Of a stretch of 64,000 nt of DNA, positions 1 to 34,064 are shown piece by piece. The DNA is taken from NCBI GenBank assembly GCA_934330725.1, contig CAKRGM010000001.1:119398-183397 (forward strand). Direction: 5' to 3'. Position 1 is the first letter of the stretch. Each line of letters starts with the position of its first letter. The notes beneath the pieces were generated by a model. That model was not told the origin of the DNA. It saw only the letters and a list, made by a program, of their open reading frames with translations, and searched no databases. The translations under genes and the position numbers were made by a program. This DNA comes from an uncultured Lachnospiraceae bacterium (GTDB taxonomy: Bacteria > Bacillota > Clostridia > Lachnospirales > Lachnospiraceae).

Positions 1-140
1 TATTTGATGCTACTCAGACAATGGTTTCACAGATTGCTGATGACTTATATGAAGTTCAGGTTGTTTCATGGTATGATAACGAAAATTCATACACAAGCCA
101 GATGGTTAGAACAATTAAGTATTTCTCAGAATTAGCTTAA
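1..140 (+). CDS. gap: Glyceraldehyde-3-phosphate dehydrogenase, C-terminal fragment (5' part outside window)
   Basis: Frame 3 reads FDATQTMVSQIADDLYEVQVVSWYDNENSYTSQMVRTIKYFSELA-stop (TAA 138-140). The SWYDNE tail is the conserved GAPDH C-terminus, and pgk follows as in glycolytic operons. Confidence 0.85.
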   Translation, partial: FDATQTMVSQIADDLYEVQVVSWYDNENSYTSQMVRTIKYFSELA

Positions 141-185
141 TTATATAGTTGATTTATCAGATATGCATTTGTGTATTTGATTATA

Positions 186-229
186 CCGGAGAATTTGAGC
201 TTACTTTGCTTTAGGTTCTCCGGTTTTTT
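186..229 (+). terminator. Rho-independent terminator/attenuator between gap and pgk
   Basis: CCGGAGAA (186-193) pairs with TTCTCCGG (216-223) and is followed by T6 (224-229). Confidence 0.65.
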
Positions 230-262
230 AAACAATAAACTTTAAACGTGGAGGGATTTAAA

Positions 263-1462
263 ATGCTTAATAAAAAGACAGTCGATGATATCGATGTAAA
301 AGGTAAAAGAGTATTAACAAGATGCGATTTTAACGTACCTTTGGATGGTGGAAAGATTACAGATGAAACTCGTCTTGTAGCTGCACTTCCTACAATTAAG
401 AAGCTTATCGCTGGTGGTGGAAAGGTAATCCTTTGCTCACATCTTGGTAAGCCAAAGGGAGAACCAAAGCCAGAATTATCTTTAGCTCCAGTTGCAAAGA
501 GATTATCAGAGCTTTTAGGACAGGAAGTTAAGTTTGCTGCTGACAACAATGTTGTTGGTGAAAATGCAAAGGCTGCTGTAGCTGCAATGAATGATGGAGA
601 TGTAATCTTACTTGAGAATACACGTTACAGAGCAGAAGAAACAAAGAATGGTGATGAATTCGCAAAGGAACTTGCTTCACTTGCTGACGTATTTGTAAAC
701 GATGCATTTGGTACAGCTCACAGAGCACACTGCTCAAATGTTGGTGTTACAAAGTATATTAATGGTCCAGCTGTTGTAGGATACTTAATGGAGAAGGAAA
801 TCAACTTCCTTGGCAATGCTGTTAATAATCCAAAGAGACCTTTCGTTGCTATCCTTGGTGGATCAAAGGTTTCATCAAAGATTTCTGTTATCAACAACCT
901 TCTTGACAAGGTAGATACATTAATCATCGGTGGTGGTATGGCTTATACATTCTGGAAAGCAGAAGGATATAATATTGGTAAGTCATTACTTGAAGAAGAT
1001 TTCCTTGATTATGCTAAGGAAATGATTGAAAAGGCAAAGAATAAGGGCGTTAAGTTATTAATCCCTGTAGATACAGTTGTTGCTAAAGAATTTAAGAACG
1101 AAGCTCCTTCAAGAGTAGTAGATGCTGATGGAATGGAAGCAGATGATATCGGACTTGATATCGGACCTAAGACAGCAGAACTTTATAAGGATGCTTTAAA
1201 GGATGCTAAGACAGTAGTATGGAATGGACCTATGGGTGTATTCGAATTTGCAAACTTTGCAAAGGGAACAATCGCTATTGCTGAAGAACTTGCTAAGTTA
1301 ACAGATGCTACAACAATCATCGGTGGTGGTGATTCAGCTGCAGCTGTTAATAATTTAGGATTTGGAGATAAGATGACACACATCTCAACAGGTGGCGGTG
1401 CATCTCTTGAATTCCTTGAAGGAAAGGATCTTCCAGGCGTAGTTGCTGCTAATGATAAATAA
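263..1462 (+). CDS. pgk: Phosphoglycerate kinase
   Basis: ORF 248..1462. The ATG at 263 follows GGAGGG. Full-length PGK motifs are present ([46 protein letters not shown]). Confidence 0.97.
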
Positions 1463-1518
1463 TTAGTTCCAATTATTGACATGAAGTATTAAATATTAAT
1501 TAGAGATTGTTATATTTA

Positions 1519-1603
1519 CAAGAACTCCATTACCGGTGGTTATATGCTTTATATAGCTGTTTTAAACAGCTGATGCATTATAATACCAGTGATGGAGTTC
1601 TTG
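1519..1603. repeat. 85-nt long imperfect palindrome (hairpin) downstream of pgk
   Basis: CAAGAACTCCAT at 1519-1530 is the exact reverse complement of ATGGAGTTCTTG at 1592-1603. The arms continue with a few mismatches to a central perfect palindrome AGCTGTTT-T-AAACAGCT (1555-1571). No T-tract follows. Confidence 0.6.
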
Positions 1604-1650
1604 GCGTATAGATACAAATATGCACGATAAGATATAGGCAAGATAAAAGT

Positions 1651-1732
1651 AGCCATGATTGCAGAGCTAAATCTGAAATTCAGCTCGCGATTCCTTCGAC
1701 GTAAAGCGTCTGTGGAATGGAGGTTAACATGG
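1651..1732 (+). repeat. Copy A of an ~82-nt dispersed element (SD + ATG-containing leader fragment); partner at 38747..38827
   Basis: AGCCATGATTGCAGAGCTAAATCTGAAATTCAGCTCGCGATTCCTTCGACGTAAAGCGTCTGTGGAATGGAGGTTAACATGG differs from the 38747 copy at about 8 of 82 positions and is in the same orientation. Here the ATG opens only a 2-codon ORF (MEK-stop). Confidence 0.8.
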
Positions 1733-1743
1733 AGAAGTGACCA

Positions 1744-1778
1744 GACAAAAAGACCTGACACGGTTAAGTGCCAGGTCT
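1744..1778 (-). terminator. Rho-independent terminator of the minus-strand glycosyltransferase gene
   Basis: On the minus strand, AGACCTG / CAGGTCT form the stem (1778-1772 and 1757-1751), followed by TTTTTGT (1750-1744). It lies 34 nt past the stop at 1812. Confidence 0.7.
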
Positions 1779-1811
1779 TAATTCTGCGGTATTTAATTCT
1801 GCTTTTATTTA

Positions 1812-3134
1812 TTAATTATTCTTAATCTGCTGTTGCAGTTCAATATCTTCAACAGACTTTGAAATACAATGCGTAATAGGCTTCCATTCAACCTTTTTAA
1901 CTAAAGCAACTAATGATATTGGAATATATGTTGCCATAAACAGAGGAAATGTAAATAAATATAATACTTTCTTTTTGTTGTTGGCAAGAATCTTATTCCA
2001 TTCAGTTATCAAAGTTATTAAGCCCATCATAAACATTAATATGTAGAAGCTTAACATTGCATAACCAATGGCAGATAGCGCTGCCGGAAGTACTTTTAAC
2101 AATACACTCATATTAGAAGCACCACATATAATAAAACCAATATTGACTAATATGCATCCTACAGAAAGAAGAGTAGCAGGAGCTAATGTCATAAACATAT
2201 CATAGCAGGAGACAAACATTTCCCGTTTTTTGAACATCATTGAAATAAGTTCTCTGCCATATCTGAACATTACCTGATAAAAGCCTTTTGACCAACGCAT
2301 ACGCTGATTCCACGATTGCCTGAATGTTGTAGGCTGCTCATCATAAAACATTGCATTTTCACAATAACCAATCTTTTCACCTTCAAGAATGTTAACAACA
2401 GAAAATTGAATATCCTCAGTAAGAAGATTGAATTTCCAGCCGTCGTTCTTTTTTATTATAGAACTGTCAACAAGGAAACCTGTTCCTGATACGGCACAGC
2501 TTGTTTTCAACATCATACGCGGATTATTAAGGTATTTGGCTTCACGTATAAACCATAAAGAATACCCTGCCGTAATCCAGTTCGTATCATAATTCTTTGA
2601 ATTTCTATAACTTGTAATAACCTTATATCCACTGTTGAATACTTTATTCATCTCAGCAACATAATTACGATCTACAATATTATCTGCGTCAAAAATGAAA
2701 TATCCGTCATATGCAGTGTAATCGCCATGTTCTTTAGCAATCTTACTGAATGCATAATCAAGAGCATATCCTTTTCCGACTAAAATTTTATTAAAACGTT
2801 CATATACAATCGCACCGTTTTCTCTAGAAACAGCAGCGGTATTATCTGTACAATTGTCAGCAACAACAATAACGTCAATTAATTCAGAAGGATAATGCTG
2901 CTGTTTTATGCTTTGTATCAGATTACCGATAACAGCACTTTCATTACGTGCTGCAATAATAAATGCATACTTGTGAAGTGCACCATTTTCTTCTGTATTA
3001 ATATTCTTTTTCTTTTTTTCACCAACTAAGGCGATAACGATATATATGAACTGATAAAAGTACAATACAGTCAATACTGTATATATCACAGTATTGATTT
3101 TTGTAACTACTTCCATTATGTTTATCCCTTCCAT
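1812..3134 (-). CDS. Membrane-embedded family-2 glycosyltransferase (processive beta-glycan synthase type)
   Basis: 440-aa ORF with GT2 signature series VVADNCTDNT, FDADN, TEDIQF and QRMRWSKG (QxxRW), plus one N-terminal and several C-terminal hydrophobic helices. An alternative start at 3116 (MEVV) sits behind GGAAGGG. Confidence 0.85.
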   Translation of the reverse strand: MEGINIMEVVTKINTVIYTVLTVLYFYQFIYIVIALVGEKKKKNINTEENGALHKYAFIIAARNESAVIGNLIQSIKQQHYPSELIDVIVVADNCTDNTAAVSRENGAIVYERFNKILVGKGYALDYAFSKIAKEHGDYTAYDGYFIFDADNIVDRNYVAEMNKVFNSGYKVITSYRNSKNYDTNWITAGYSLWFIREAKYLNNPRMMLKTSCAVSGTGFLVDSSIIKKNDGWKFNLLTEDIQFSVVNILEGEKIGYCENAMFYDEQPTTFRQSWNQRMRWSKGFYQVMFRYGRELISMMFKKREMFVSCYDMFMTLAPATLLSVGCILVNIGFIICGASNMSVLLKVLPAALSAIGYAMLSFYILMFMMGLITLITEWNKILANNKKKVLYLFTFPLFMATYIPISLVALVKKVEWKPITHCISKSVEDIELQQQIKNN

Positions 3135-3329
3135 TTTATCAAAAATGAAAATATTTGTTTGAAATATCTCTAATGATTAAAGTCCTTTTAGAATTATATC
3201 ATTAGTTTTTTGGGTGTCAATACTAAATTGTGCTTTTTCTTGTTTTTTAATTCGTAAAACACAGAAATTTCATATTTAGTATTTGACAAATCTTCTTATT
3301 ATTATATTATATAAGATAAATGTTTATCA

Positions 3330-4688
3330 ATGCTAAATAATAATTTTATTTCAATAGACAGAAAGGATATCAGAATTAAAATGTATAAAGAAGTTTCGAA
3401 GTTAATAATGTATGGAAGTATGGATGAAGAATGCATTCTGGTAAAGATGGCAGATATTTTTGAAAGATTTGAAAATAAAAAATCATCAAAGGCACAGCTT
3501 ATTCAGGATATATATACCCAGATTAAGAGAATTCTGGTTGTGGCAACAGATTATGGCTTTGATAAAAATCTGTGGCACAATTATCTTACATTTATATTAA
3601 TAACAAATGAAAACCCATTTAGTATTACGTGTGAAAAAATTGGTGCAAATGACGGAAGTGTTAATGAATTTGCAAAAAATGATTTTAATGTATTTATAAA
3701 TCTGTTCAACTATGATTTTTCAGAAATAGAAAAAGAACTTGGTATTAACTGTTTTTCACTTATATCAAATTACAAATCAATAGTAAAGAAAGAACTCATG
3801 TATAATAAAAATGTCAGTGAAAAGGTTCAGGCACTTAGCGAAAAGCTTGAATCGGCTGAAACTGCAGATGAATTTTTTACATATGTTACAGACTTTTATA
3901 AGGATTACGGAGTTGGAATGTTTGGACTTAACAAAGCATTTCGTATCAGCAGTAATGATTCAGCCGGTGTTGTATTTCATCCGATTAATAATATGGATAA
4001 AGTCACACTCAATGATCTTATTGGATATGAGATACAAAAGAAGAAGCTTGTTGAGAATACAGAAAGTTTTGTGCAGGGAAGAAAAGCAAATAATGCTCTT
4101 TTATATGGTGACAGTGGTACAGGTAAATCAACAAGCATCAAGGCAATTGTAAATGAGTATTACGACCAGGGACTTAGAATGATTGAGATATACAAGCATC
4201 AGTTTAAGGATCTTTCGACTGTGATTTCGATGATAAAGAACAGAAATTACAAATTCATTATATATATGGATGATCTCTCATTTGAAGAATTTGAAATTGA
4301 ATATAAATTTTTAAAAGCGGTAATTGAAGGCGGAGTTGAAACAAAACCTGATAATATACTTATTTATGCTACATCTAACAGACGTCATCTTATCAAGGAA
4401 ACATGGAATGACAGATCTGATATGGAAAGTGGAAATGGACTTCACAGATCAGATACAATGGAAGAAAAGCTTTCATTAGTAAATAGATTTGGATGCCAGA
4501 TAAATTATTCAAAGCCATCACAGAAGGAATATTTTGATATTGTAGTGAATCTGGCAAAAAAGAATAATATTAAAATGTCAGATGATGAATTGTGTGCAGA
4601 AGCAAATAAATGGGAGTTAAGCCATGGCGGTATATCAGGACGTACGGCACAGCAGTTTATTAATCATCTTATGGGACTTAAAAAATAA
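3330..4688 (+). CDS. AAA-type ATPase of the DUF815 family
   Basis: Walker [38 protein letters not shown]. This is the typical DUF815 arrangement upstream of ruvA in Clostridia. The start is uncertain (3330 or ATG 3381). Confidence 0.75.
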
Positions 4689-4703: not shown

Positions 4704-5312
4704 ATGGTTTCATATATTAAAGGAAAATTAGCAGAAGTATTTGAGGACACAATTGTAATTGAAAATAATGGAATGGGATTTAATGTAAGGGTTCCGGCAT
4801 CATTACTTGACAGCATACCGTCCGTTGGCGAGATGGTAAAGGTGTATACATATCTTTATGTCAGGGAGGATGCCATAAACTTATTTGGTTTTCTGACAAG
4901 GCAGGATCTTGATGTGTTTAAGCTTCTGCTTAATGTAAATGGTATAGGGCCGAAAGGAGCACTTGGTATACTTTCTACAATAACACCTGATGATTTGAGA
5001 TTTGCCGTGTTATCAGATGATGTAAAAGCAATATCAAAAGCACCGGGGATTGGGACGAAGACAGCACAGAAACTTATTATTGAATTAAAAGATAAGTTAA
5101 AGCTTGAATATTTTACAGATCAGGGAAAAATTGCGGACGGACAGGCTGTTTCAGCATCATCATCAGCTAAGAATGAGGCGGTAGAGGCGCTGGTTGCTTT
5201 GGGATATGCCAATAGTGAGGCAATAAAAACCGTTAATATGGTTGAAAATGTTAACGAAAAAGATACCGAGACTATTCTTAAGGAAGCGCTAAAGAAAATG
5301 GCGTTTTTGTAA
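4704..5312 (+). CDS. ruvA: Holliday junction DNA helicase subunit RuvA
   Basis: 202 aa. N-terminal OB fold (MVSYIKGKL...), HhH motifs (GIGPKGAL, APGIGTKTAQKLI), followed by ruvB. Confidence 0.95.
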   Translation: MVSYIKGKLAEVFEDTIVIENNGMGFNVRVPASLLDSIPSVGEMVKVYTYLYVREDAINLFGFLTRQDLDVFKLLLNVNGIGPKGALGILSTITPDDLRFAVLSDDVKAISKAPGIGTKTAQKLIIELKDKLKLEYFTDQGKIADGQAVSASSSAKNEAVEALVALGYANSEAIKTVNMVENVNEKDTETILKEALKKMAFL

Positions 5313-5335
5313 TTTGGTAATAAAGTGCCGGCAGC

Positions 5336-6343
5336 ATGGAGGTAAATGTGGAAAGAAGAATAATATCAACCCAGCTAGAGGAAGAAGACATAAAAATTGA
5401 AAATAATTTAAGACCTCTTAAGCTTGATGATTATATTGGGCAGGAAAAAGTAAAAAATAATTTAAAGGTATATATACAGGCGGCAAAGCAAAGAGGTGAT
5501 TCTCTTGACCATGTGTTGTTTTATGGCCCTCCGGGACTGGGAAAAACTACACTTGCAGGTATTATTGCCAATGAGATGGATGTGCATATGAAGGTTACAT
5601 CAGGACCTGCAATAGAACGTCCGGGGGATATGGCGGCAATACTTAACAATCTTTCAGAGGGGGATGTGCTTTTTGTTGATGAAATACACAGACTGAACAG
5701 ACAGGTTGAAGAAGTACTGTATCCGGCAATGGAAGATTTTGAAATTGATGTAATGATTGGAAAAGGTGCTACAGCGCGATCTATAAGGCTTGATTTGCCT
5801 AAATTTACGCTTGTTGGAGCAACAACGAGAGCAGGACTGCTTTCAGCACCGTTAAGAGACAGATTTGGGGTTGTAAACCATCTTGAATTTTATAACGTAT
5901 CTGAACTGCAGACGATAATTAAACGTTCAGCAGATGTGCTTGGCGTAAGTATAGATGATAAAGGAGCACATGAGCTGGCAAGAAGGTCAAGAGGAACACC
6001 GAGACTTGCAAACAGACTGCTTAAAAGAGTAAGAGATTTTGCACAGGTAAAGTATGATGGAAAGATAACCCTGGAGGTGGCCGATTTTGCGCTTGATCTG
6101 CTGGATGTTGACAGAGATGGCCTTGACAGGAATGACAGGATTATTCTTAATACGATAATAGGAAAATTTAACGGCGGTCCGGTCGGGATAGAAACTCTTG
6201 CAGCTTCAATTGGTGAGGATGCCGGAACACTTGAAGATGTTTATGAACCATATCTGATTCAGAACGGGTTTATTAACAGGACTCCAAGGGGAAGAGTAGC
6301 AACCACGCTTGCATATAAAAATCTTGGTATTGAACAAATATAG
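5336..6343 (+). CDS. ruvB: Holliday junction ATP-dependent DNA helicase RuvB
   Basis: [12 protein letters not shown], Walker [10 protein letters not shown], Walker [23 protein letters not shown] 5348 behind GGAGG is an equally good start. Confidence 0.97.
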
Positions 6344-6408
6344 TATTTATTGTATACTTATAAAAATGATTAGTCAGTAAATTGTTTACGTGTGATGAGG
6401 AGGATATA

Positions 6409-6816
6409 ATGTCATCAAAGAATGATGCTGAAGTTATAATTGCAGGCAAGGTTTTTACTATATCCGGATATGAGAGTAAAGAGTATCTGCAGAAAGTAGC
6501 TGCGTATATTAACGGTAAACTGGAGGGATTTAACAATAATGATTCTTTTAGGAGAACATCAGCAGAGGTTAGAACGAATCTTATGTATCTTAATATTGCG
6601 GATGATTATTTTAAGGCCAGGAAGATAGGAGATGACCTTCAGGAAGAGCTTGATATAAAGGTCAAAGAAATATATGATTTAAAGCATGATCTTATTAAAG
6701 CAAGAATGGAAAATGAGGCTGCATTAAAAGAAATAAAGACACTTGAAGATGAAAAAGAAAAGTTTAAAAAGAATATTGTTAAACTTGAAACAGAGCTTCA
6801 GGATATGAAAAAATAG
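6409..6816 (+). CDS. zapA: Cell division protein ZapA
   Basis: The ATG at 6409 follows GAGGAGG. N-terminal IIAGKVFTISGYESKEYLQKVAAYIN is ZapA-like, and the tail is a C-terminal coiled coil. Confidence 0.75.
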   Translation: MSSKNDAEVIIAGKVFTISGYESKEYLQKVAAYINGKLEGFNNNDSFRRTSAEVRTNLMYLNIADDYFKARKIGDDLQEELDIKVKEIYDLKHDLIKARMENEAALKEIKTLEDEKEKFKKNIVKLETELQDMKK

Positions 6817-9474: not shown

Positions 9475-10850
9475 TGCAGTCTATTTTCATAGAAATGTCA
9501 AAATATATTTTTGCATTCCTTATAGCGTTTTACACGCTGGCGTCGTATAGAGGCGCTGTAGTGCATAATGAGACAAAAAGAAAGAAAATATATATAACAC
9601 AGAATATTTTTATGTTTACAATTCATCTTATGGGTTATCTGATATTATATATTCTCAATGATGATATTAAATTTGTGATATTATATTTTGCCCAGTTCGT
9701 ATTTTTGTTTGTTATTATTGTTGTATATGATGTAATCTATCCAAAGGCCTCCAGGCTGCTTGTAAACAATATGTGCATGCTTATGGCAATTGGATTTATA
9801 ATGATTGCAAGACTTGATTATGATAAGTGCGTAAAACAGTTTGTAATTGCAATATGTGGAGCTGTTGTGACATTTTTTGTTCCATGGCTTTTAAAAACAG
9901 TAAAGAGCTTTAGAAATTTTGGATGGATATATTGTGCGGCAGGATTTATTTTGCTTGTTGCAGTTTTGTTTGGCAAAAAAGTTTTTGGCGCAAATCTGGT
10001 GCTATCGATAGGTCCGTTCTCAATTCAGCCGGGCGAATTTGTTAAAATATTATATATAATGTTTGTTGCATCGATGTTTAATAAATCAACAGATTTTAAA
10101 CAGACGGCACTTGTTACGGCGGCAGCAGCAGCGCATGTCATAGTGCTTGTGCTTTCAAATGATCTTGGAGCAGCGTTGATATTTTTTGTCGTATATCTTA
10201 TGTTATTATTTATTGCAACAAAAAAAGCATGGTATATGGTTGCCGGGCTGGGAGTTGGAAGTGTGGCATCGGTTGTGGCATATAAATTATTTTCCCATGT
10301 AAGAGACAGGGTCGTTATCTGGAGAGATCCGTGGAGCACAATTGATACGACAGGCTATCAGATATGTCAGTCTCTTTTTGCCATTGGAATGGGTTCGTGG
10401 TTTGGATATGGATTAGGACAGGGGATGCCGGATAAGATACCTGTAGCAGAAAAAGATTTTATGTTTTCGGCAATAGCAGAAGAATTCGGATCTATTTTTG
10501 CAATCGGAATACTTCTTATCTGTCTGAATAACCTTATTCTGATGATGAATATAGCATCAAGGTGCAAAACACTGTTTTACAGACTGGTTGCAGTTGGTAT
10601 CGGTGTTACATATGGTTTTCAGGTTTTCCTTACAGTTGGTGGTGCTATAAAGCTGATACCGATGACAGGAGTAACTTTACCATTTGTAAGTTATGGTGGC
10701 AGTTCAATCATAAGTTCGTTAATTATGTTCGCATTAATAAATGGTATGTATAACATGAGACAGGATGAGAGTGAGGCACAGCATGAAAGAACAGGAAGCA
10801 TTAAGAAAGGTAAAAAGAAGCAGAAGGCTAAAAAGGCAAAAGAAGACTAA
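9474..10850 (+). CDS. FtsW/RodA/SpoVE family peptidoglycan glycosyltransferase
   Basis: Polytopic 458-aa protein with SEDS motifs (QPGEFVKILYIMF, DLGAALIFF, PVAEKDFMFSAIAEEFG, TGVTLPFVSYGGSS). The start overlaps the U32 stop (TAATG). Confidence 0.9.
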   Translation: MQSIFIEMSKYIFAFLIAFYTLASYRGAVVHNETKRKKIYITQNIFMFTIHLMGYLILYILNDDIKFVILYFAQFVFLFVIIVVYDVIYPKASRLLVNNMCMLMAIGFIMIARLDYDKCVKQFVIAICGAVVTFFVPWLLKTVKSFRNFGWIYCAAGFILLVAVLFGKKVFGANLVLSIGPFSIQPGEFVKILYIMFVASMFNKSTDFKQTALVTAAAAAHVIVLVLSNDLGAALIFFVVYLMLLFIATKKAWYMVAGLGVGSVASVVAYKLFSHVRDRVVIWRDPWSTIDTTGYQICQSLFAIGMGSWFGYGLGQGMPDKIPVAEKDFMFSAIAEEFGSIFAIGILLICLNNLILMMNIASRCKTLFYRLVAVGIGVTYGFQVFLTVGGAIKLIPMTGVTLPFVSYGGSSIISSLIMFALINGMYNMRQDESEAQHERTGSIKKGKKKQKAKKAKED

Positions 10851-25719: not shown

Positions 25720-26244
25720 ATGAAAAAAGTTGAAGATTATATTAGAAGCATACCAGATTTTCCGGAAGAGGGAATAATATTCAGAGATATCACAAGCGTA
25801 TTGCAGCATCCGGATGGATTAAAGCTTGCAATCGATGAAATGGATGAATGTTTAAAGGACGTTGATTTTGATGTTGTCGTTGGACCTGAATCAAGAGGAT
25901 TTATATTCGGGGTGCCGGTTGCATATAACAATAATAAGGGATTTGTTCCGATAAGAAAAAAAGGAAAGCTTCCTTGTGAAACTATTTCAGAGGAATATGC
26001 TCTGGAATATGGCACAGCAACATTAGAAGTCCATAAGGATGCAATTAAACCGGGACAAAAGGTTGTGATAATTGATGACCTTATTGCAACAGGAGGAACT
26101 ACAGAAGCAATAATAAAGCTTGTTGAAAGACTTGGTGGGAAAGTTGCAAAAATAGTATTTCTTATTGAGCTTGAGGGCTTAAAAGGAAGAGATAAATTAA
26201 AAGGTTATAATGTTGCTTCAGTTGTTAAATATCCTGGTAAATAA
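25720..26244 (+). CDS. apt: Adenine phosphoribosyltransferase
   Basis: 174 aa. IPDFPEEGIIFRDIT and the PRPP loop VVIIDDLIATGGT. Confidence 0.95.
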   Translation: MKKVEDYIRSIPDFPEEGIIFRDITSVLQHPDGLKLAIDEMDECLKDVDFDVVVGPESRGFIFGVPVAYNNNKGFVPIRKKGKLPCETISEEYALEYGTATLEVHKDAIKPGQKVVIIDDLIATGGTTEAIIKLVERLGGKVAKIVFLIELEGLKGRDKLKGYNVASVVKYPGK

Positions 26245-26325
26245 ATTAAATGCGGATGATGCGAAACTCACAGCTGTATGGCTGTGAGTTTGTGGCATAA
26301 ATATATAAATGAAAGGTGGGAGATT

Positions 26326-27027
26326 ATGTTAACACCACATAATAAAGCGCAAAAAGGCGAAATATGCAAAACTGTTCTTATGCCGGGAGATCCGTTAAGA
26401 GCAAAATATATTGCGGAGAAATACCTTGATAATTCAAAATGTTTTAATACAGTACGTAATATGTATGGTTACACAGGAACATATAATGGAAAAGAGATTT
26501 CTGTAATGGGAAGCGGTATGGGAATGCCATCAATAGGTATATACAGTTATGAATTATATAACATATATGACGTAGATAATATAATAAGAATTGGTTCTGC
26601 AGGCGCACTTGCAGATGATGTCAGGGTAAGGGATATAGTTATAGCAATGGGAGCATGTACAGACTCTAATTATGCGGCACAGTATAATATTCCGGGAACA
26701 TTTGCACCAATAGCTGATTATGGGCTTTTGAAAAAATGTACAGATAATGCAGAAAAAAACAACATGAGTGTTCATGTGGGAAATGTATTGTCGTCAGATA
26801 TTTTTTACAATGATGATCCGACAGTTAATGACAGGTGGAAAAGGATGGGCGTTTTAGCTGTTGATATGGAAGCAGCTGCCCTGTATATGAATGCAGCACG
26901 GGCGGGGAAAAATGCACTCTGTATTCTCACGGTAAGCGATCATCTTTATACAGGTGAAAAACTCACATCAGGTGAACGTGAAAAAACATTTGATGATATG
27001 ATAGAACTTTCACTTGGATTGATATAA
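26326..27027 (+). CDS. deoD: Purine nucleoside phosphorylase DeoD-type
   Basis: The ATG at 26326 follows GGTGGGAG. TPHNKAQKGEICKTVLMPGDPLRAKYIAE, GSGMGMPSIGIYSYEL, AVDMEAAALY. Confidence 0.93.
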   Translation: MLTPHNKAQKGEICKTVLMPGDPLRAKYIAEKYLDNSKCFNTVRNMYGYTGTYNGKEISVMGSGMGMPSIGIYSYELYNIYDVDNIIRIGSAGALADDVRVRDIVIAMGACTDSNYAAQYNIPGTFAPIADYGLLKKCTDNAEKNNMSVHVGNVLSSDIFYNDDPTVNDRWKRMGVLAVDMEAAALYMNAARAGKNALCILTVSDHLYTGEKLTSGEREKTFDDMIELSLGLI

Positions 27028-27067
27028 AGCCATACAGTATAAAAACACGGGGAAGGAAATATAATAT

Positions 27068-28753
27068 ATGACAGATATGGACTTAAAGGTTATTGCCCTT
27101 ATAGCCGGCTTTTTTATAATTGTAATTTACGTTGCAATAGATAATAAAAGAAAATATAATGCAAAACTTATAAACAGACTTAAAAATGAATGGGGAAAGC
27201 CGGGAAAAAGGGAACATTCAAGAGAAGAGTATGATAACATTTCGCATTATTTCCGGGATACATTTGAAGAAAAAAATGACATTGATGATATAACATGGAA
27301 TGATCTTAACATGGATGCCGTGTTTAATACAATAAATACAACAAATTCGTCAATCGGGCAGGAATACCTGTATAAGACGTTAAGAACTCCTGTACAGGAT
27401 GAAGAAAAATTAAAGAAAATGGACAGGCTTGCAGACTATTTTACATCTCATGAAAAGGAGCGGATACAGGTTCAGAAAAGATTTGCATCGTTTGGTTTTG
27501 TAAAGAAAATTTCCCTGAGTGATTATATTGGACTTGTGACAGATCTTAAAAGTGGAAATAATACCATTCATTATATACTGCTTTTGGCAGAAATACTTTC
27601 ATTTGTTATTTGTTTTACAGTAAATCCGGTTGTGGGCGTAGCAATGATAGTTATCTGTGTGGCAGTTATGATTGGAACCTATTACAAAATGAAGGCACAG
27701 GTGGAACGTTATTTTGTATGTGTTACGCAGTTTATTAATCTGGTCGGTGTATCTGAAAAAATATCTTCAGATGGAATTGGCGGACTTAAGGAATATGACG
27801 AACAGCTAAAGACGATAGCAGGCAGATTTTCTAAAGTTACAGGTAAAAGCTGGATACTTGAAAAGGGTAATGTAACAGGTTCACTTGCAGAGATGATAAT
27901 GATATATGTAAGAATGCTTACTCATATTGATCTGATTCATTTCAACAGTATGATAAGAGTACTTAATAAAAAAGAAGAGGATGCAAGGCAGCTTATGGAT
28001 ATACTTGGATTTATTGAAACTTCAATAGCTGTCGGTTCGTTCAGACAGATGCTTGCATATTATTCAGTTCCTGAATTTAGTGATGATGGCAGTATGAGGC
28101 TTGATGTTCAGGAAGTGTTTCATCCACTGATAAAAGATCCTGTAGCCAATTCGCTTGATACAGACAGAAACATATTGCTTACAGGTTCAAATGCATCAGG
28201 AAAATCAACATTTTTAAGAACTATTGCAATAAATGCACTGCTTTCACAGACAATTTACACCAGTGTATCTAAAAAGTATACTGCACCGAGATTTAGAATT
28301 TTTTCTTCAATGTCATTAAAGGATGATCTTAGCAGTAGCAGTAGTTATTATATCGTTGAGATTAGGTCATTAAAGAGAATTCTTGATATAATTGAGCCCG
28401 GGGGCTGTCCGGTTTTATGCTTTGTTGATGAGGTGCTGCGGGGTACAAATACGGTAGAAAGAATTGCAGCATCGTCAGAAATATTAAAATATATTTATGG
28501 TAAAAATGCATTGTGTTTTGCTGCAACCCATGATATTGAGCTTACATCTATACTTGAAAAATACTATACAAATTATCATTTTCAGGAAGAGGTCACTGAT
28601 GATGATGTTAAGTTTAATTTCACATTATTTAAGGGACCGGCAACTACAAGAAATGCAATAAAATTATTAAAGATAATGGGGTATGATAAGAGTATTGTAG
28701 AGCGTGCAGAAACTAATGCGGCGCATTTTATTGATACAGGCTTATGGAAATGA
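27068..28753 (+). CDS. Membrane-anchored MutS-related ATPase (MutS domain V only)
   Basis: N-terminal and central TM helices, then LLTGSNASGKSTFLRTI (Walker A), FVDEVLRGTN (Walker B) and AATHDIELT. I see no mismatch-binding or Smr domain. Confidence 0.8.
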   Translation: MTDMDLKVIALIAGFFIIVIYVAIDNKRKYNAKLINRLKNEWGKPGKREHSREEYDNISHYFRDTFEEKNDIDDITWNDLNMDAVFNTINTTNSSIGQEYLYKTLRTPVQDEEKLKKMDRLADYFTSHEKERIQVQKRFASFGFVKKISLSDYIGLVTDLKSGNNTIHYILLLAEILSFVICFTVNPVVGVAMIVICVAVMIGTYYKMKAQVERYFVCVTQFINLVGVSEKISSDGIGGLKEYDEQLKTIAGRFSKVTGKSWILEKGNVTGSLAEMIMIYVRMLTHIDLIHFNSMIRVLNKKEEDARQLMDILGFIETSIAVGSFRQMLAYYSVPEFSDDGSMRLDVQEVFHPLIKDPVANSLDTDRNILLTGSNASGKSTFLRTIAINALLSQTIYTSVSKKYTAPRFRIFSSMSLKDDLSSSSSYYIVEIRSLKRILDIIEPGGCPVLCFVDEVLRGTNTVERIAASSEILKYIYGKNALCFAATHDIELTSILEKYYTNYHFQEEVTDDDVKFNFTLFKGPATTRNAIKLLKIMGYDKSIVERAETNAAHFIDTGLWK

Positions 28754-28863: not shown

Positions 28864-31506
28864 GTGCAGTACAGAGGCGTTAATGAGTTAAGAAGAATGT
28901 TTCTCGACTTTTTTGAGAGCAAAGGTCATTTAAAAATGAAGAGTTTTTCATTGGTTCCACACAATGATAACAGTTTATTATTAATAAATTCAGGAATGGC
29001 ACCTTTAAAGCCATATTTTACAGGACAGGAGATTCCACCAAGAAGAAGGGTTACAACATGTCAGAAGTGTATCAGAACAGGTGATATTGAAAATGTTGGT
29101 AAGACAGCAAGACATGGTACATTTTTTGAAATGTTAGGTAACTTCTCATTTGGTGATTACTTTAAAACAGAAGCAATACACTGGTCATGGGAATTTCTTA
29201 CTGAGGTAGTAGGATTAGACCCTGACAGACTTTACCCGTCAATATATTTAGATGATGATGAAGCATTTGATATCTGGAATAAAGAAATTGGTATCGCTCC
29301 TGAAAGAATTTTCCGTTTTGGAAAAGAAGACAACTTCTGGGAACATGGCGCAGGTCCATGTGGTCCATGTTCAGAAATCTACTATGACCGTGGCGAAAAG
29401 TACGGATGTGGTAAGCCGGGATGTACAGTAGGATGCGAATGTGACAGATATATGGAAATCTGGAACAACGTATTTTCACAGTTTAATAATGATGGTAAAG
29501 GTAACTATTCTGACCTTATCCAGAAGAATATTGATACAGGTATGGGTCTTGAAAGACTTGCAGTTGTAGTACAGGATGTCGATTCAATCTTTGACGTAGA
29601 TACATTACAGTCATTAAGAAATGAAGTCTGCAGAATGGCAGGAGTTAAATACCTGGAAGATGAAAAAACAGATGTTTCTATCCGTGTAATCACAGACCAT
29701 ATCCGTTCAGTTACATTTATGGTAAGTGATGGAATCATGCCATCTAACGAAGGAAGAGGATATGTTTTAAGAAGACTTTTAAGAAGAGCTGCAAGACATG
29801 GAAGACTTCTTGGAATTGAAGGAAAGTTTTTAACAGAACTTTGTAATACAGTAATCGAAGGCTCAAAGGATGGTTATCCTGAACTTGAGGAAAAGAAAGA
29901 ATTTATATTCAATGTAATATCACAGGAAGAAGATAAGTTTGATAAGACAATAGATCAGGGACTTTCAATCTTAAACCAGATGACGGATGATGTTGAAAAA
30001 TCAGGAAAGAACGTTTTATCAGGAGAAGATGCATTTAAACTCTATGATACATACGGATTCCCGCTTGACCTTACAAAGGAGATTCTTGAGGAAAAGAACA
30101 TTACTGTTGATGAAGATGGCTTTAATGCTGCGATGAAGGAGCAGAAAGAAAAGGCAAGAGGCGCACGTAAGACAACAAACTATATGGGTGCTGATGCAAC
30201 TGTTTACGATGAACTTGATCCGGCTATTAAGAGCACATTTACAGGATATACATCTCTTACGGATGAATCTGTTATTTCAGCTCTTACAACAGAAACAGAA
30301 GTAGTACAGGCTGTAACAGAAGGCGAGAAGGCTACAATTATTACTGATAAGACTCCATTTTATGCAACAATGGGTGGTCAGGAAGGTGATAAGGGTATTA
30401 TCACTTCAGCTGAAGGTGAATTTAAGGTAGAGACAGCTATCCATCTTAAAGGTGAAAAAATCGGACATGTTGGTGTTGTTACAAAAGGAATGTTCAAGGC
30501 TGGCGATAAGGTAGAACTTAAAGTTGATGCGGCAAACAGAACAGATACAGGAAAGAACCACAGTGCAACACACCTTTTACAGAAAGCGTTAAAGACTGTA
30601 CTTGGCAACCATGTTGAACAGCAGGGTTCATATGTAGATGCTGACAGATTAAGATTTGACTTTACTCATTTTAAGGCTATGACAGATGAAGAAATTGCAA
30701 AGGTAGAAGCTTTGGTAAATGAAAAGATTGCAGAAAATCTTGAAGTAAAGACAGATATAATGAGCCTTGAACATGCGAAGAAGACAGGAGCCATGGCTTT
30801 ATTTGGTGAAAAGTATGGTGACAGTGTGCGAGTTGTATCAATGGGAGACTTCTCTAAAGAATTATGTGGTGGTACACACGTTCCAAATACAGGCGTTATA
30901 TCATTATTCAAGATTGTTTCTGAATCAGGTGTTGCAGCCGGAGTAAGAAGAATCGAAGCTCTTACAGGCAAGGGCGTAATAAACTACTTTAATAAAATTG
31001 AAGATGAATTAAAACAGGCTGCAATAGCTGCAAAGACAGAACCGGCTAAGCTTGTTGCAAGAATTAATTCATTGAATGATGAAGTTAAATCACTTACGGG
31101 TGAACTTGATAAATTAAAGGCTAAACTTGCAAATGATGCATTAGGCGATGTTACAAAGGATATCAAAGAAGTTAGCGGCGTAAAGACACTTGTAACAAAG
31201 GTTGACAATGTCGATATGAACGAACTTCGTAACCTTGGAGATAAGATGAAAGACAACTATGGTGCCGGAGTAGTTCTTATCGTAAGTGCACAGGGTGCAG
31301 ACAAGGTAAATATCATTGCAATGGCAACTGATGATGCAGTAAAGAAAGGTGCTCATGCAGGTAATCTGATTAAACAGGTTGCATCAATTGTCGGCGGTGG
31401 CGGCGGCGGAAGACCAACAATGGCACAGGCCGGTGGTAAGAAACCAGAAGGAATAGATGAACTTATGAGCAAAGCGCAGGAAGTAATTGCAGAGCAGCTT
31501 GCGTAG
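28864..31506 (+). CDS. alaS: Alanine--tRNA ligase
   Basis: GTG start behind AGGAGG. 880 aa. FFESKGH, RHGTFFEMLGNFSFGDYFK, editing-domain HSATHLL and CGGTHV, C-terminal GGGGGGRP (DHHA1). Confidence 0.98.
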   Translation: MQYRGVNELRRMFLDFFESKGHLKMKSFSLVPHNDNSLLLINSGMAPLKPYFTGQEIPPRRRVTTCQKCIRTGDIENVGKTARHGTFFEMLGNFSFGDYFKTEAIHWSWEFLTEVVGLDPDRLYPSIYLDDDEAFDIWNKEIGIAPERIFRFGKEDNFWEHGAGPCGPCSEIYYDRGEKYGCGKPGCTVGCECDRYMEIWNNVFSQFNNDGKGNYSDLIQKNIDTGMGLERLAVVVQDVDSIFDVDTLQSLRNEVCRMAGVKYLEDEKTDVSIRVITDHIRSVTFMVSDGIMPSNEGRGYVLRRLLRRAARHGRLLGIEGKFLTELCNTVIEGSKDGYPELEEKKEFIFNVISQEEDKFDKTIDQGLSILNQMTDDVEKSGKNVLSGEDAFKLYDTYGFPLDLTKEILEEKNITVDEDGFNAAMKEQKEKARGARKTTNYMGADATVYDELDPAIKSTFTGYTSLTDESVISALTTETEVVQAVTEGEKATIITDKTPFYATMGGQEGDKGIITSAEGEFKVETAIHLKGEKIGHVGVVTKGMFKAGDKVELKVDAANRTDTGKNHSATHLLQKALKTVLGNHVEQQGSYVDADRLRFDFTHFKAMTDEEIAKVEALVNEKIAENLEVKTDIMSLEHAKKTGAMALFGEKYGDSVRVVSMGDFSKELCGGTHVPNTGVISLFKIVSESGVAAGVRRIEALTGKGVINYFNKIEDELKQAAIAAKTEPAKLVARINSLNDEVKSLTGELDKLKAKLANDALGDVTKDIKEVSGVKTLVTKVDNVDMNELRNLGDKMKDNYGAGVVLIVSAQGADKVNIIAMATDDAVKKGAHAGNLIKQVASIVGGGGGGRPTMAQAGGKKPEGIDELMSKAQEVIAEQLA

Positions 31507-31534
31507 AGTTATATAAAGATATATAAAAATATAT

Positions 31535-31591
31535 AAAAAAACAAACCAGTAACACTCTGTATTATTAGTCGTGTTCCTGGTTTGTTTTTTT
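31535..31591 (+). terminator. alaS terminator hairpin = left inverted-repeat arm (IR-L) of the insert
   Basis: AAAAAAACAAACCAG (31535-31549) pairs with CTGGTTTGTTTTTTT (31577-31591) around a 27-nt loop. Homologous in inverted orientation to 33202-33254 (see findings). Confidence 0.8.
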
Positions 31592-31715
31592 ATCGAGCGG
31601 TTGTTGGAGGCGGAAGGGGGAGTGGGATTTTTTTTGGGGGGAAAATATTATGAAGGGATGCCTATACTTTGTACATAGTAGAAGATTTTAAGGTAATTTA
31701 AGAATTGGCTCGTAA

Positions 31716-32395
31716 ATGAATAAAATTTTTGATATAATAAATCTATATAGCTATGAGGAGGTGACATTCATTAACGAGCCTAAAATCAGTCAATTATGTT
31801 ACAATATGAATCTTGGTTCTACAGAGCCTAAATTTGCAATCTTAGAAGATGGAACACAGGTTGTTACAAAATTATATAATGGACCAGAAGGTAATCTTGT
31901 GCTCTTTAATGAGTATATATGTTATCGCATGGCTATTTTGTTGGATATTCCTATGCCGAGATCAGGTATTTGCATTTTAGATGCTTCATCGGAAATCCAG
32001 GAAATCTTTTGGTTAGATTCTGCAAAGATGATGTTTCGCTTAAAGTCATAGACCATACACATGTTTTTATTAATCAGACTTTTTGGGATGCTAATTGCTT
32101 GAAAAGGGCAATGGAAGAAAATGATTTATTAGATACAAAGGTACTTCAGTATAATGCATACCTTTACGAAATGTTCTTTCATAATTTTTCTATTACAAAG
32201 GAAATGTTGGAAAAAGAAAGTTTGGTCTTCAAAAGCAAGATTAGTCGTGATATAATATTGGAATTTATTAGCATCATTCCAGAGGAATGGAAACCTAATC
32301 AAAAAGATTTGGATGAACTTGTAAAATATATTCTATATAGGGTTGATAACTTGGATGTGATAATATCAACAATTTTAACATACAATAGTAGATAA
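31716..32395 (+). pseudogene. HipA-like (HipA_2-type) serine/threonine kinase gene, disrupted by a frame change
   Basis: Two overlapping ORFs (31716..32051 and 31919..32395). The first frame gives an N-lobe-like segment (NEYICYRMAILLDIPMPRSGICILD). The second gives GNPGNLLV...KVIDHTHVF, resembling the catalytic and Mg-binding loops of HipA-like kinases. The frames must be joined near 31985-32000. Confidence 0.5.
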
Positions 32396-32411
32396 GGAAG
32401 GAGGAAATATT

Positions 32412-33155
32412 ATGTACCACATTGAATATGCAGCATTGAATTATTACCATTCGCCTATTTCTGATGAGTGTTTATGTATAGGTGTGTTATTTCATAATAT
32501 AACAACGGGACAATGTGATTTCAAATATATCTCCAATTTCCAGCGTTTTCACGCATTTGATGATGAGGCTGATTTAGATTTTGTTAAACTCTATTTAAGA
32601 GGTATTAAAGAAGAAATAGAGCCATCTGTTTTTAATTATAATAAGGAATTTGATATTGCTTCATATATTAGGGTATATGCAAATGAGTTTAGGTTTTCAT
32701 CTGTAAGAACGCTTTCGGTTAATGAAAATGAAAATTATGTTGATGATCTATCGAAAATATATTTGAAATATGATTTAGCAAAATCACAAAGATTGAATGG
32801 AAATGAAGAAAAGAAATTAATTCGCAGGGTACTCGAATCAAATAATCTTGAATATTCTACTCAAAAGGTAGACGGACCATATAGCGATGAAATTTCGTTT
32901 GATTATCAAGTTGGAGATGTGTGTGTTAAGTTGTTTTCATTTAAAGGAAAGAATCTGAAACGAGTTATTGGAAATGCGAGACAGTGGTCTTTTGTAGCTG
33001 ATGAGATAGGAGCACAGAAGAAAGTACTATTCATATATGATTCTGATTATGAAGATATGAGTAATCTTAATATAATCATTAAAATACTATCAAAAAATGC
33101 AGAAGTTTTGAAGTTGGATGCTGGAATGGATTATATTTTGAAGCAGTGTTCATAG
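32412..33155 (+). CDS. DUF3037-type protein (247 aa)
   Basis: Strong RBS (AAGGAGGA). The N-terminus YHIEYAALNYYHSPISDECLCIGVLFHN matches my memory of the DUF3037 signature (Y..lry.P....gE..NiGv.l). It starts 17 nt after the kinase-like gene. Confidence 0.6.
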   Translation: MYHIEYAALNYYHSPISDECLCIGVLFHNITTGQCDFKYISNFQRFHAFDDEADLDFVKLYLRGIKEEIEPSVFNYNKEFDIASYIRVYANEFRFSSVRTLSVNENENYVDDLSKIYLKYDLAKSQRLNGNEEKKLIRRVLESNNLEYSTQKVDGPYSDEISFDYQVGDVCVKLFSFKGKNLKRVIGNARQWSFVADEIGAQKKVLFIYDSDYEDMSNLNIIIKILSKNAEVLKLDAGMDYILKQCS

Positions 33156-33201
33156 ATATTAAAACCACATAAAATGTGGAGAGTGAGCCATCTGCCGATA
33201 C

Positions 33202-33254
33202 AAAAACAAACCAGGAGAGCGACTGACAAAACGGAGCACGACTGGTTTGTTTTT
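33202..33254 (+). terminator. Terminator hairpin = right inverted-repeat arm (IR-R) of the insert
   Basis: AAAAACAAACCAG (33202-33214) pairs with CTGGTTTGTTTTT (33242-33254) around a 27-nt loop. The stem is identical to the alaS terminator. Confidence 0.75.
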
Positions 33255-33290
33255 GTATAAAATATATCGTAAAATATATGCAAAAAATGG

Positions 33291-33318
33291 TTGACGAATC
33301 ATAATATTATGATATAAT
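33291..33318 (+). promoter_or_regulatory. Sigma-A promoter of rpsU
   Basis: TTGACG (33291-33296), a 16-nt spacer, then TGaTATAAT with TATAAT at 33313-33318 (extended -10). Confidence 0.7.
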
Positions 33319-33396
33319 ATCATTTGTGCAATTAATTAATACCCTATTATGTATTGTTGTGCACAATTTGCAACAGAAGGGTGGTCAGGAAATAGT

Positions 33397-33573
33397 ATGT
33401 CAAACGTTATCGTAAAAGAGAACGAGTCTTTAGATAGTGCATTACGTAGATTTAAAAGAAATTGTGCTAAGGCTGGTATTCAGCAGGAAATACGTAAAAG
33501 AGAACATTACGAAAAGCCAAGCGTAAGACGCAAGAAGAAATCTGAAGCTGCTAGAAAACGTAAATTCAACTAA
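33397..33573 (+). CDS. rpsU: 30S ribosomal protein S21
   Basis: The ATG at 33397 follows [37 protein letters not shown]... Confidence 0.95.
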
Positions 33574-33585
33574 TAATAATTATCG

Positions 33586-33619
33586 AAGCTGTCATTTTTT
33601 AATGACAGCTTTTTGTTTT
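33586..33619 (+). terminator. Rho-independent terminator of rpsU
   Basis: AAGCTGTCATT (33586-33596) / AATGACAGCTT (33601-33611), followed by TTTGTTTT. Confidence 0.8.
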
Positions 33620-33704
33620 ATAAATCAGCATGTAAAAAGATAGTTTTCTATGCATTTGCATATTTTTCTGTGATACGTAATATGAATATAGTAAACACTT
33701 TAAA

Positions 33705-34064
33705 ATGGGTGTGGTTGTTGTGAAAAATAAAGGTGCAGGAAATGGAGAGCCTGAAAAATATAAAAAGTTTGAAAAATCAGGGAAGATTGAAAAGGCAGCA
33801 CTGGCTGATGGATTTAAAAGCAGCTTTGCAAGGAATTTTGATGTTACAAGGGATACAATGCTTGGAATGCCAATCATTACTGCAATTGGGAACTGCCAGA
33901 TATATATAGAAAATTTTAAATCAATTATGGAGTATCGGTGCGATTTAATAAAACTTTTAACAAAACGGGGAATGGTTCTGGTGTATGGCGACTGCCTTGA
34001 AATATTATATTATGATGATGAGGAAATTTCCATAAAAGGGCGAATAAAAAAAATTGAATTCTGA
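33705..34064 (+). CDS. yqfC: Sporulation protein YqfC (YabP family)
   Basis: The C-terminal ~85 aa (LGMPIITAIGNCQIYIENFKSIMEYRCDLIKL...ISIKGRIKKIEF) are YabP/YqfC-like, and yqfD follows. The start is uncertain. Confidence 0.8.
   Translation: MGVVVVKNKGAGNGEPEKYKKFEKSGKIEKAALADGFKSSFARNFDVTRDTMLGMPIITAIGNCQIYIENFKSIMEYRCDLIKLLTKRGMVLVYGDCLEILYYDDEEISIKGRIKKIEF

Follow-up and report, generated by a model that had tools for sequence, protein, structure and literature searches.

Genes for DUF3037 proteins are strongly linked to genes for HipA-like kinases, and the pair constitutes the PADLOC candidate PDC-M66 (PMC12548924). At the Retron-Sda1 locus, deletion of the kinase abolished defence against phage Bas51 and deletion of the DUF3037 gene was toxic, the retron parts being dispensable (PMC12548924). 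The Escherichia coli pair DS-6 (DefensePredictor) has been validated and renamed HipAD, and a catalytic mutant of its kinase (DS-6A D139A) loses defence (PMC13092281). For this pair, a complex of the A and B proteins is predicted and, more weakly, DNA binding by the B protein, the C-terminal part of which was assigned to DUF1829 with an HHpred probability of 0.78 (PMC13092281); Brenes & Laub 2025 (pmid 40409266), cited in the same paper, discovered the pair independently. Here we examine a HipA-like kinase/DUF3037 pair at positions 31716–33155 of a 64-kb stretch of DNA (the window, in whose positions all coordinates are given). The region is very probably an eroded remnant of a mobile-element-borne HipA_2 kinase/DUF3037 module of the PDC-M66/DS-6/HipAD type. 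The pair has decayed from a system that is already known and validated by experiment, which makes it a relic of an ordinary kind rather than something new.

The stop codon of alaS (31506) and the start of rpsU (33397) enclose three open reading frames (ORFs), all on the same (+) strand. The first (31716–32051, 111 amino acids) is the first part of a split kinase gene; the second (31919–32395, 158 amino acids) lies in a different frame and carries the peptides GNPGNLLV and KVIDHTHVF; and the third (32412–33155, 247 amino acids, N-terminus MYHIEYAALNYYHSPISDECLCIGVLFHN) is the DUF3037 gene. An earlier note on this DNA, made from the letters alone, had described this gene pair and quoted these peptides, all of which are present at the positions that it gave; the spacer that it put at 17 nt measures 16 nt from the kinase stop to the DUF3037 start. 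Its suspicion of a toxin-antitoxin or defence module agrees with the tests of homologous pairs (PMC12548924, PMC13092281), but the pair can no longer be called experimentally undescribed, being already known as PDC-M66, as the Retron-Sda1 pair (PMC12548924) and as DS-6/HipAD (PMC13092281).

The lesion in the kinase gene was delineated by comparison with intact orthologues of 280–282 amino acids (280 in L004 and 282 in L028, for example). In a tblastn search of the window with an intact kinase, residues 2–94 aligned at 31725–32003 and residues 148–280 at 31994–32392 in another frame. The N-terminal part of the pseudogene (31716..32002, + strand, delimited by tblastn and blastn) thus corresponds to residues 2–94 of the intact 280-residue HipA_2 kinase, i.e. 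to its N-lobe, after which the frame runs out of register to the stop at 32051; the C-terminal part (32003..32395, + strand) corresponds to residues 148–280 in the other frame. At the DNA level, window 31708–32002 matches positions 5129–5423 of an intact Anaerostipes-type locus (L004), and window 31992–33166 matches positions 5582–6754. The two blastn segments overlap by 11 nt, GAAATCCAGGA, which marks the deletion junction (31992..32002, + strand) and is common to both sides; the net loss relative to L004 is 169 bp, and the frame is shifted. Intact homologues hold imperfect copies of the GAAATCCAGGA motif at two sites, encoding SEIQD and DRNPGN. As the motif is present at both edges in intact genes, the segment seems to have been deleted between two short direct repeats.

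The deletion removed 53 residues (95–147), including FDHVIFNTDR with the catalytic Asp. The complete catalytic loop, FDxxIxNxDR...GN, is therefore absent from the window kinase, of which only NPGNLLV and VIDHTH are left. The earlier note had compared GNPGNLLV and KVIDHTHVF to the catalytic and metal-binding loops of HipA-family kinases; the former is indeed the C-terminal half of the catalytic loop, but the catalytic Asp that should precede it (in NTDR) has been deleted. Aligned to DS-6A (27.7 bits), the kinase-family profile places D139 of DS-6A opposite the Asp of NTDR, so that the equivalent of D139 falls within the 169-bp deletion. With the catalytic-loop Asp and 53 residues gone and the frame shifted, the kinase is no longer able to act as a toxin or defence effector. 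The inactivation that the earlier note had suspected is thus confirmed.

Profile searches concur. HipA_2 (PF20613) scores 15.1 bits on the N-terminal fragment, against a cut-off of 27, and does not match the C-terminal fragment; HipA_C reaches 16.5 bits against a cut-off of 30.5; and the PADLOC model PDC-M66A does not match the kinase fragments of the window. Both fragments match phrog_3162, the N-terminal one over profile positions 3–68 and the C-terminal one over 132–238, which leaves about 63 positions between them uncovered. Intact orthologues, which are 85–87% identical to the fragments, score 56.8–59 bits with HipA_2 (cut-off 27) and match PDC-M66A with E values of 4e-9 and 9e-8. Because the orthologues pass HipA_2 and the fragments fail, the window gene descends from this family and no longer qualifies as a member of it. 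These matches, together with that of PF11236 to the downstream protein (described below), bear out the HipA-like and DUF3037 assignments of the earlier note.

One may ask if the kinase still works, either as a two-piece enzyme or by programmed frameshifting across the overlap of the two ORFs (31919–32051). Both fragments are open and conserved in sequence (dN/dS 0.06–0.15), the nucleotide-binding lobe is still present in the N-terminal fragment, and NPGN and IDH are still present in the C-terminal one. However, the 53 residues, with FDHVIFNTDR and its catalytic Asp, are missing in every frame; replacement of the equivalent residue in DS-6A (D139A) abolishes defence (PMC13092281); and the fragments have neither a PADLOC match nor an above-threshold Pfam match. 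We regard a functional kinase as extremely improbable.

The exact DUF3037 protein of the window is encoded on at least seven contigs from independent samples, all of which carry the same split kinase between alaS and rpsU. One of them (L011) is 100% identical to the window over 3745 bp that cover alaS, the deletion and rpsU. The genes spoIVA, yabP and yqfD suggest a spore-forming member of the Clostridia as host. Although metagenome contigs of the same species often break near a hairpin to the left of the pair, a feature that might point to an assembly or sequencing artefact, the occurrence of an identical deleted allele in at least seven contigs from different samples and assemblers makes such an origin of the split next to impossible.

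In contrast to the kinase gene, the DUF3037 gene (32412..33155, + strand) is intact, and it has its own ribosome-binding site, AAGGAGG. The 247-residue product is matched by PF11236 over residues 6–88 (25.2 bits against a curated cut-off of 22.6), by PDC-M66B over residues 1–200 (E 1.7e-5) and by phrog_7610 (E 2.5e-22), and it retains all 54 invariant positions of its family. With more distant proteins of this two-domain family, PF11236 reaches 56–79 bits over profile positions 1–118. An exhaustive profile search returned 303 clusters at E ≤0.001, and nearly all full-length matches cover both halves of the protein. An NCBIfam search gave nothing relevant, and a sequence search of the Protein Data Bank (PDB) with the kinase and the DUF3037 protein gave nothing significant.

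The AlphaFold2 model of the DUF3037 protein consists of two domains (mean pLDDT 82.5, pTM 0.52). The C-terminal half is an α/β domain that no Pfam model covers, either in the window protein or in distant members. A fold search against the PDB found nothing at E ≤0.001, with only weak, recurring matches to XPF/Mus81/Hef nuclease-like domains. In a library of viral protein structures, the model matched a two-domain protein annotated as DUF1828 (E 3.5e-6), as well as KilA-N proteins and small PD-(D/E)XK nuclease-domain proteins (target-normalised TM-score 0.56–0.59). At the level of the predicted fold, the C-terminal half is possibly a divergent equivalent of the DUF1829 domain of DS-6B. The invariant D159, D164 and K173 recall a nuclease motif, but the second acidic position is occupied by Cys or Tyr, so that nuclease activity is not predicted. 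The protein is presumed to be the antitoxin and regulator of the module.

We then compared the pair with its homologues (contigs numbered with the prefix L). The DUF3037 protein has 154 close homologues (58–90% identity) in gut Clostridia, and on their contigs the gene directly upstream encodes a HipA_2 kinase of 280–282 amino acids. A kinase gene or its remnant stands immediately upstream in 17 of 18 species-representative loci, in agreement with the published linkage (PMC12548924) and with the frequent adjacency that the earlier note had mentioned.

The kinase has been lost independently five times among the loci examined, three times with the DUF3037 gene still whole. Besides the 169-bp deletion of the window, with its intact DUF3037 gene, these are a frameshift in Anaerostipes (L002/L003), where the kinases of L001 and L004, whose loci encode an identical DUF3037 protein, are intact; an in-frame loss of residues ~121 to 268 in Coprococcus (L041); an internal kinase deletion in Schaedlerella (L043), accompanied by truncation of the DUF3037 gene after 40 codons; and the absence of the kinase gene from L042, which has a nonsense codon in its DUF3037 gene. 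Damage to the DUF3037 gene beside an intact kinase was seen in none of these loci. Toxin-antitoxin systems decay in two steps, toxin first (PMC13617665), and five kinase-first losses with none that is antidote-first agree with this order. Kinase-first loss in five lineages is natural-history evidence for the published toxin and antidote roles of the two proteins. The orphan DUF3037 gene of the window is most likely an antidote gene that is heading for loss.

The same pattern could alternatively mean that the DUF3037 gene is under selection, either as a stand-alone antidote against incoming HipA_2 kinases, with an anti-addiction or anti-defence role, or as a co-opted DNA-binding regulator. The gene is full length, with 54 of 54 invariant positions and a strong ribosome-binding site of its own; all conspecific contigs found are fixed for the combination of a dead kinase with an intact DUF3037 gene, which recurs in Anaerostipes (L002/L003) and Coprococcus (L041); and the family moves readily among gut Clostridia (84–93% identity), which makes encounters with related kinases plausible. 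Against this, conspecific copies differ by zero substitutions, which makes selection after the deletion unmeasurable, the DUF3037 gene is itself decaying in L042 and L043, as expected of a transient stage, the 64-kb window holds no intact kinase gene elsewhere, and loss of the toxin first and of the antitoxin later is the default path of neutral decay (PMC13617665). We consider selection on the gene distinctly unlikely, and its more specific form, a working stand-alone antidote kept against HipA_2 toxins of phages or integrative elements that circulate among gut Clostridia, very unlikely. If the latter were true, the gene would be an anti-addiction or anti-defence gene born of a decayed defence system.

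The pair is a real insertion between alaS and rpsU, as judged by comparison with related genomes. In 9 of 10 related loci that encode an identical S21, rpsU follows alaS after 114–291 nt, compared to 1890 nt in the window. The GC content of the cassette is 29–32% and that of alaS is 37–41%. Homology to the insert-free loci picks up again at window 33256–33290, in the rpsU promoter. The horizontal acquisition that the earlier note had proposed is hence well founded.

Homology among cassettes that reside in unrelated contexts begins at 31707/8. The conserved 5′ boundary (31707..31738, + strand) consists of GGCTCGTAAATG followed by an extended −10-like element, TGATATAAT (31730–31738), and the conservation of the latter suggests that 31707–31738 is probably the module's own promoter region. 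As this element is located inside the called ORF, the ATG at 31716 may not be the true start. A strong GAGGAGG (31755–61) is found 8 nt before an in-frame ATT, inside the first 18 codons (31716–31772) of the kinase ORF, and the presence and position of an ATG at the 5′ end of the kinase gene vary among homologues. The true start of the kinase may be downstream or non-canonical, with the promoter inside the called ORF. At the other end, homology to other cassettes stops at ~33166, and a small hairpin, CCACATAAAATGTGG (33165..33179), directly after the DUF3037 stop, replaces the conserved terminator of the other cassettes. An Rfam scan of 31300–33800 gave no match.

Cassettes with 84–85% DNA identity are found at unrelated sites, namely after lysS in Anaerostipes, after rnc in Peptostreptococcus and between spoVA genes in a Blautia-type metagenome-assembled genome. 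In L026, L028–L030 and L036, the sequence just upstream of the pair is the 3′ end of a tyrosine-integrase gene, and in L004 a degenerate version of it; the upstream ORF of L036 matches Phage_integrase (PF00589, E 1.5e-10). Downstream of the pair, these integrase-preceded genomes share the conserved terminator and, beyond it, TAGTAGTA/TACTACTA repeats. In the window, about 24 nt upstream of the pair (GTAGAAGATTTTAAGGTAATTTAA, 31678..31701, + strand) align at the DNA level with the end of the integrase gene, ...QKMFKAI*, that precedes the pair elsewhere. The integrase of L001, tried as a probe for the integrases of the window and of other loci, was set aside as a distant, different integrase with weak C-terminal matches only. 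Compared with L004, the Anaerostipes-type contig L001 has one more integrative element (positions 1–4572, with primase, RelB/ParE and integrase), which lies in the lysS 3′ end immediately before the pair and brings along a 176-residue replacement for the tail of lysS.

In L054–L058, an integrase fragment, RelB/ParE and Fic are situated upstream of the pair, and different mobile elements follow it (AlwI-type restriction-modification, IS66 or conjugation genes). The left sides of these loci are identical (ECF sigma factor, Fic, RelB/ParE, integrase fragment, HipA_2, DUF3037), and the loci diverge right after the pair, where (downstream of position 9732) one finds chromosomal genes, IS66, the conjugation genes of an integrative and conjugative element, or an AlwI-type restriction-modification system that has two methylases and is accompanied by satellite-like capsid and primase genes. 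Judging from this gene order, the site is a hotspot for tandem integration. Staphylococcus phages 52A, 80 and SAP-26 (all three of S. aureus) and PhiSepi-HH1 encode a homologous pair, ORF013/ORF019, which in 52A is located between the endolysin and integrase genes; in the 52A record (L052), it occupies an accessory slot at positions 26059–27597. The phage pairs are annotated without a function, and no study of them was found in the literature searched. The cassette is also found on contigs with the labels 'Treponema sp.' (L036) and 'Bacteroides fragilis' (L039); another source attributes the protein of L039 to Blautia sp., and a sister contig (L008) has clostridial sporulation genes around the same cassette. 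These labels likely reflect mis-binning or mislabelling and not cross-phylum transfer. Taken together, the contexts suggest that the module is typical end-of-element cargo, of which the window would represent what remains after decay of the element.

The constant position beside an integrase at the end of an element also raises the possibility that, in these Firmicutes, the intact module is mainly an addiction cassette that stabilises its carrier element or prophage, rather than a phage defence system. Other toxin-antitoxin pairs adjoin the module (RelB/ParE and Fic in L054–L058, RelB/ParE in L001), and removal of the DUF3037 gene from the tested system had a toxic effect (PMC12548924). Kinase-dependent defence, however, has been demonstrated directly for two homologous systems (PMC12548924, PMC13092281), the two roles can coexist, and the chromosome-borne relic of the window stabilises nothing. 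A predominantly addictive role therefore seems unlikely to us.

The insert is flanked by two hairpins. The left one (31533..31593, + strand), just past the alaS stop, has 23-nt arms, a 15-nt loop and A and T tracts at its sides; the right one (33198..33258, + strand) has 17-nt arms and a 27-nt loop and is followed by the rpsU promoter and leader. They form the left and right copies of a 64-nt inverted repeat (31532–31595 and 33196–33259) that is 80% complementary and has identical outer stems (AAAACAAACCAG...CTGGTTTGTTTT). By hand count, 17 of 27 loop positions match in the inverted orientation and 6 of 27 in the direct one. Apart from these two copies at the edges of the insert, the stem motif is absent from the 64 kb. 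The hairpins were considered as ends of a repeated mobile element, but a motif scan of metagenomes returned eight unrelated terminators, with no homology to the window. They may derive from attL and attR, from a duplication of the alaS terminator or from the termini of a small element. A 9-bp target-site duplication, AAAATATAT (31526–34 and 33259–67), was likewise rejected, as conspecific contigs vary by indels exactly there: compared to the window, they differ by 10 bp (31510–31519) and 12 bp (33258–33269), each indel being one unit of an AT-rich tandem repeat. With such unstable AT-rich spacers at the edges of the insert, the match of the duplication is not reliable.

Downstream of the insert, the rpsU promoter and leader (33290–33396) comprise TTGACG, a spacer of 16 nt, TATAAT and then GTGCAATTAATTAATACCCTATT...CACAATTTGCAACAGAAGGGTGGTCAGG. 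The leader and rpsU are 86–88% identical across genera whose alaS coding sequences are 76–78% identical; this conservation suggests that the leader, which has no Rfam match, may be a conserved regulatory leader of S21. In two related loci (L015, 5177–8401; L016, 5177–9796), the rpsU–yabP spacer has received insertions of 3–4.5 kb with genes that lack Pfam matches. It seems that the alaS–rpsU–yabP stretch repeatedly takes up small insertions.

Combining these findings, we propose the following history of the locus. As experiments in other bacteria have shown, in intact relatives the kinase of ~280 amino acids is a growth-arresting toxin and the anti-phage effector, and the DUF3037 protein encoded downstream binds and neutralises it. 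Phage infection would free the kinase, which would phosphorylate an essential target and abort the infection; both the trigger and the target of this step are presumptive in their details. The module probably arrived at the end of an integrative element, beside the integrase gene, when the element entered the alaS–rpsU spacer. The element would later have been lost, leaving behind the two cargo genes and ~24 nt from the 3′ terminus of the integrase gene. The 169-bp deletion between 11-nt direct repeats, of which the junction is preserved in the window, then inactivated the kinase.

Several observations weigh against the interpretation of the locus as a decayed module of this type. The similarity of this Firmicutes clade to the tested systems is distant (PADLOC E values of 1e-5 to 1e-9). 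A link to DS-6B, which scores up to 50 bits against members of the family, was made through intermediate sequences and speaks for the relationship; a direct hhalign comparison of the family alignment with DS-6B was collinear over 206 columns and not significant (probability 4.5%). DUF1829, reported in DS-6B, found no match at E values of up to 10 in the C-terminal half of the window protein or in 10 distant relatives. The dN/dS ratio of the kinase remnants (0.06–0.15) is not higher than that of intact kinases (0.04–0.11); as the remnants stay within the intact-like range, there is no sequence signal of relaxed selection, and the structural lesion is the only sign of decay. The nearest intact cassette is at a dS of at least 0.43 and conspecific copies are identical, which renders dN/dS uninformative with regard to selection on both the kinase remnant and the DUF3037 gene. 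For the proposed history as an integrative element, the evidence consists of a 24-nt remnant and the analogy with other loci, and the flanking inverted hairpins are unaccounted for by a decayed module. We nevertheless hold to the eroded remnant as the best explanation.

Since the pair is no longer uncharacterised and the copy in the window is non-functional, the locus offers no route to a new system. It does reveal a well-conserved branch of the family in Firmicutes and Staphylococcus phages, for which intact orthologues have been identified, e.g. on contigs of Anaerostipes caccae and Peptostreptococcus stomatis.

It remains to place the module among known systems. Similar to HipBA of E. coli K-12, it features a Ser/Thr kinase toxin of the HipA superfamily that is restrained by an antidote from the same operon. 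The antidote gene, however, is upstream in HipBA and downstream here, where no helix-turn-helix gene precedes the kinase, and the antidote lacks the HipB-type helix-turn-helix. The kinases also differ, the one here being a HipA_2 protein of ~280 amino acids and HipA one of ~440 amino acids with HipA_C and N-terminal domains.

The ORF013/ORF019 pair of the Staphylococcus phages has the same two-gene layout as the window, with a spacer of 6 nt in the phage. ORF013, annotated as 'phosphatidylinositol kinase', is a HipA_2 protein (E 6.4e-10), and ORF019 is 26–31% identical to the window protein over 86–87% of its length. Unlike the window pair, this one is phage-borne and intact, and it is positioned between the lysis genes and the integrase gene.

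DS-6/HipAD shares with the window the arrangement of two co-directional genes, in which a small HipA-like kinase comes first and a DUF3037 protein immediately after, and with the family the catalytic-loop pattern FD....N.DR...GN and carriage on mobile elements or prophages. DS-6B and the window protein have two domains each, with DUF3037 at the N-terminus, and are similar in size (275 and 247 amino acids, respectively). Their architectures are parallel and their C-terminal domains possibly equivalent; the DUF1829 assignment of DS-6B is itself weak. The differences are the remote sequence similarity (27.7 bits for the kinase), the host, which is a gut Clostridia member here, and the state of the kinase, which in the window is without residues 95–147, frameshifted and hence non-working.

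The Retron-Sda1 homologue comes from a retron-bearing environmental isolate, and retron-linked homologues occur in Bacteroidota and Pseudomonadota (PMC12548924), whereas the vicinity of the window pair contains neither a retron reverse transcriptase nor its non-coding RNA. Of the PADLOC models of the pair, PDC-M66B fits the window protein and PDC-M66A fits the intact orthologues of its kinase, but not the kinase fragments of the window. In the Retron-Sda1 pair, the kinase is required and loss of the DUF3037 protein is toxic, which fits the pattern of decay seen at this locus.

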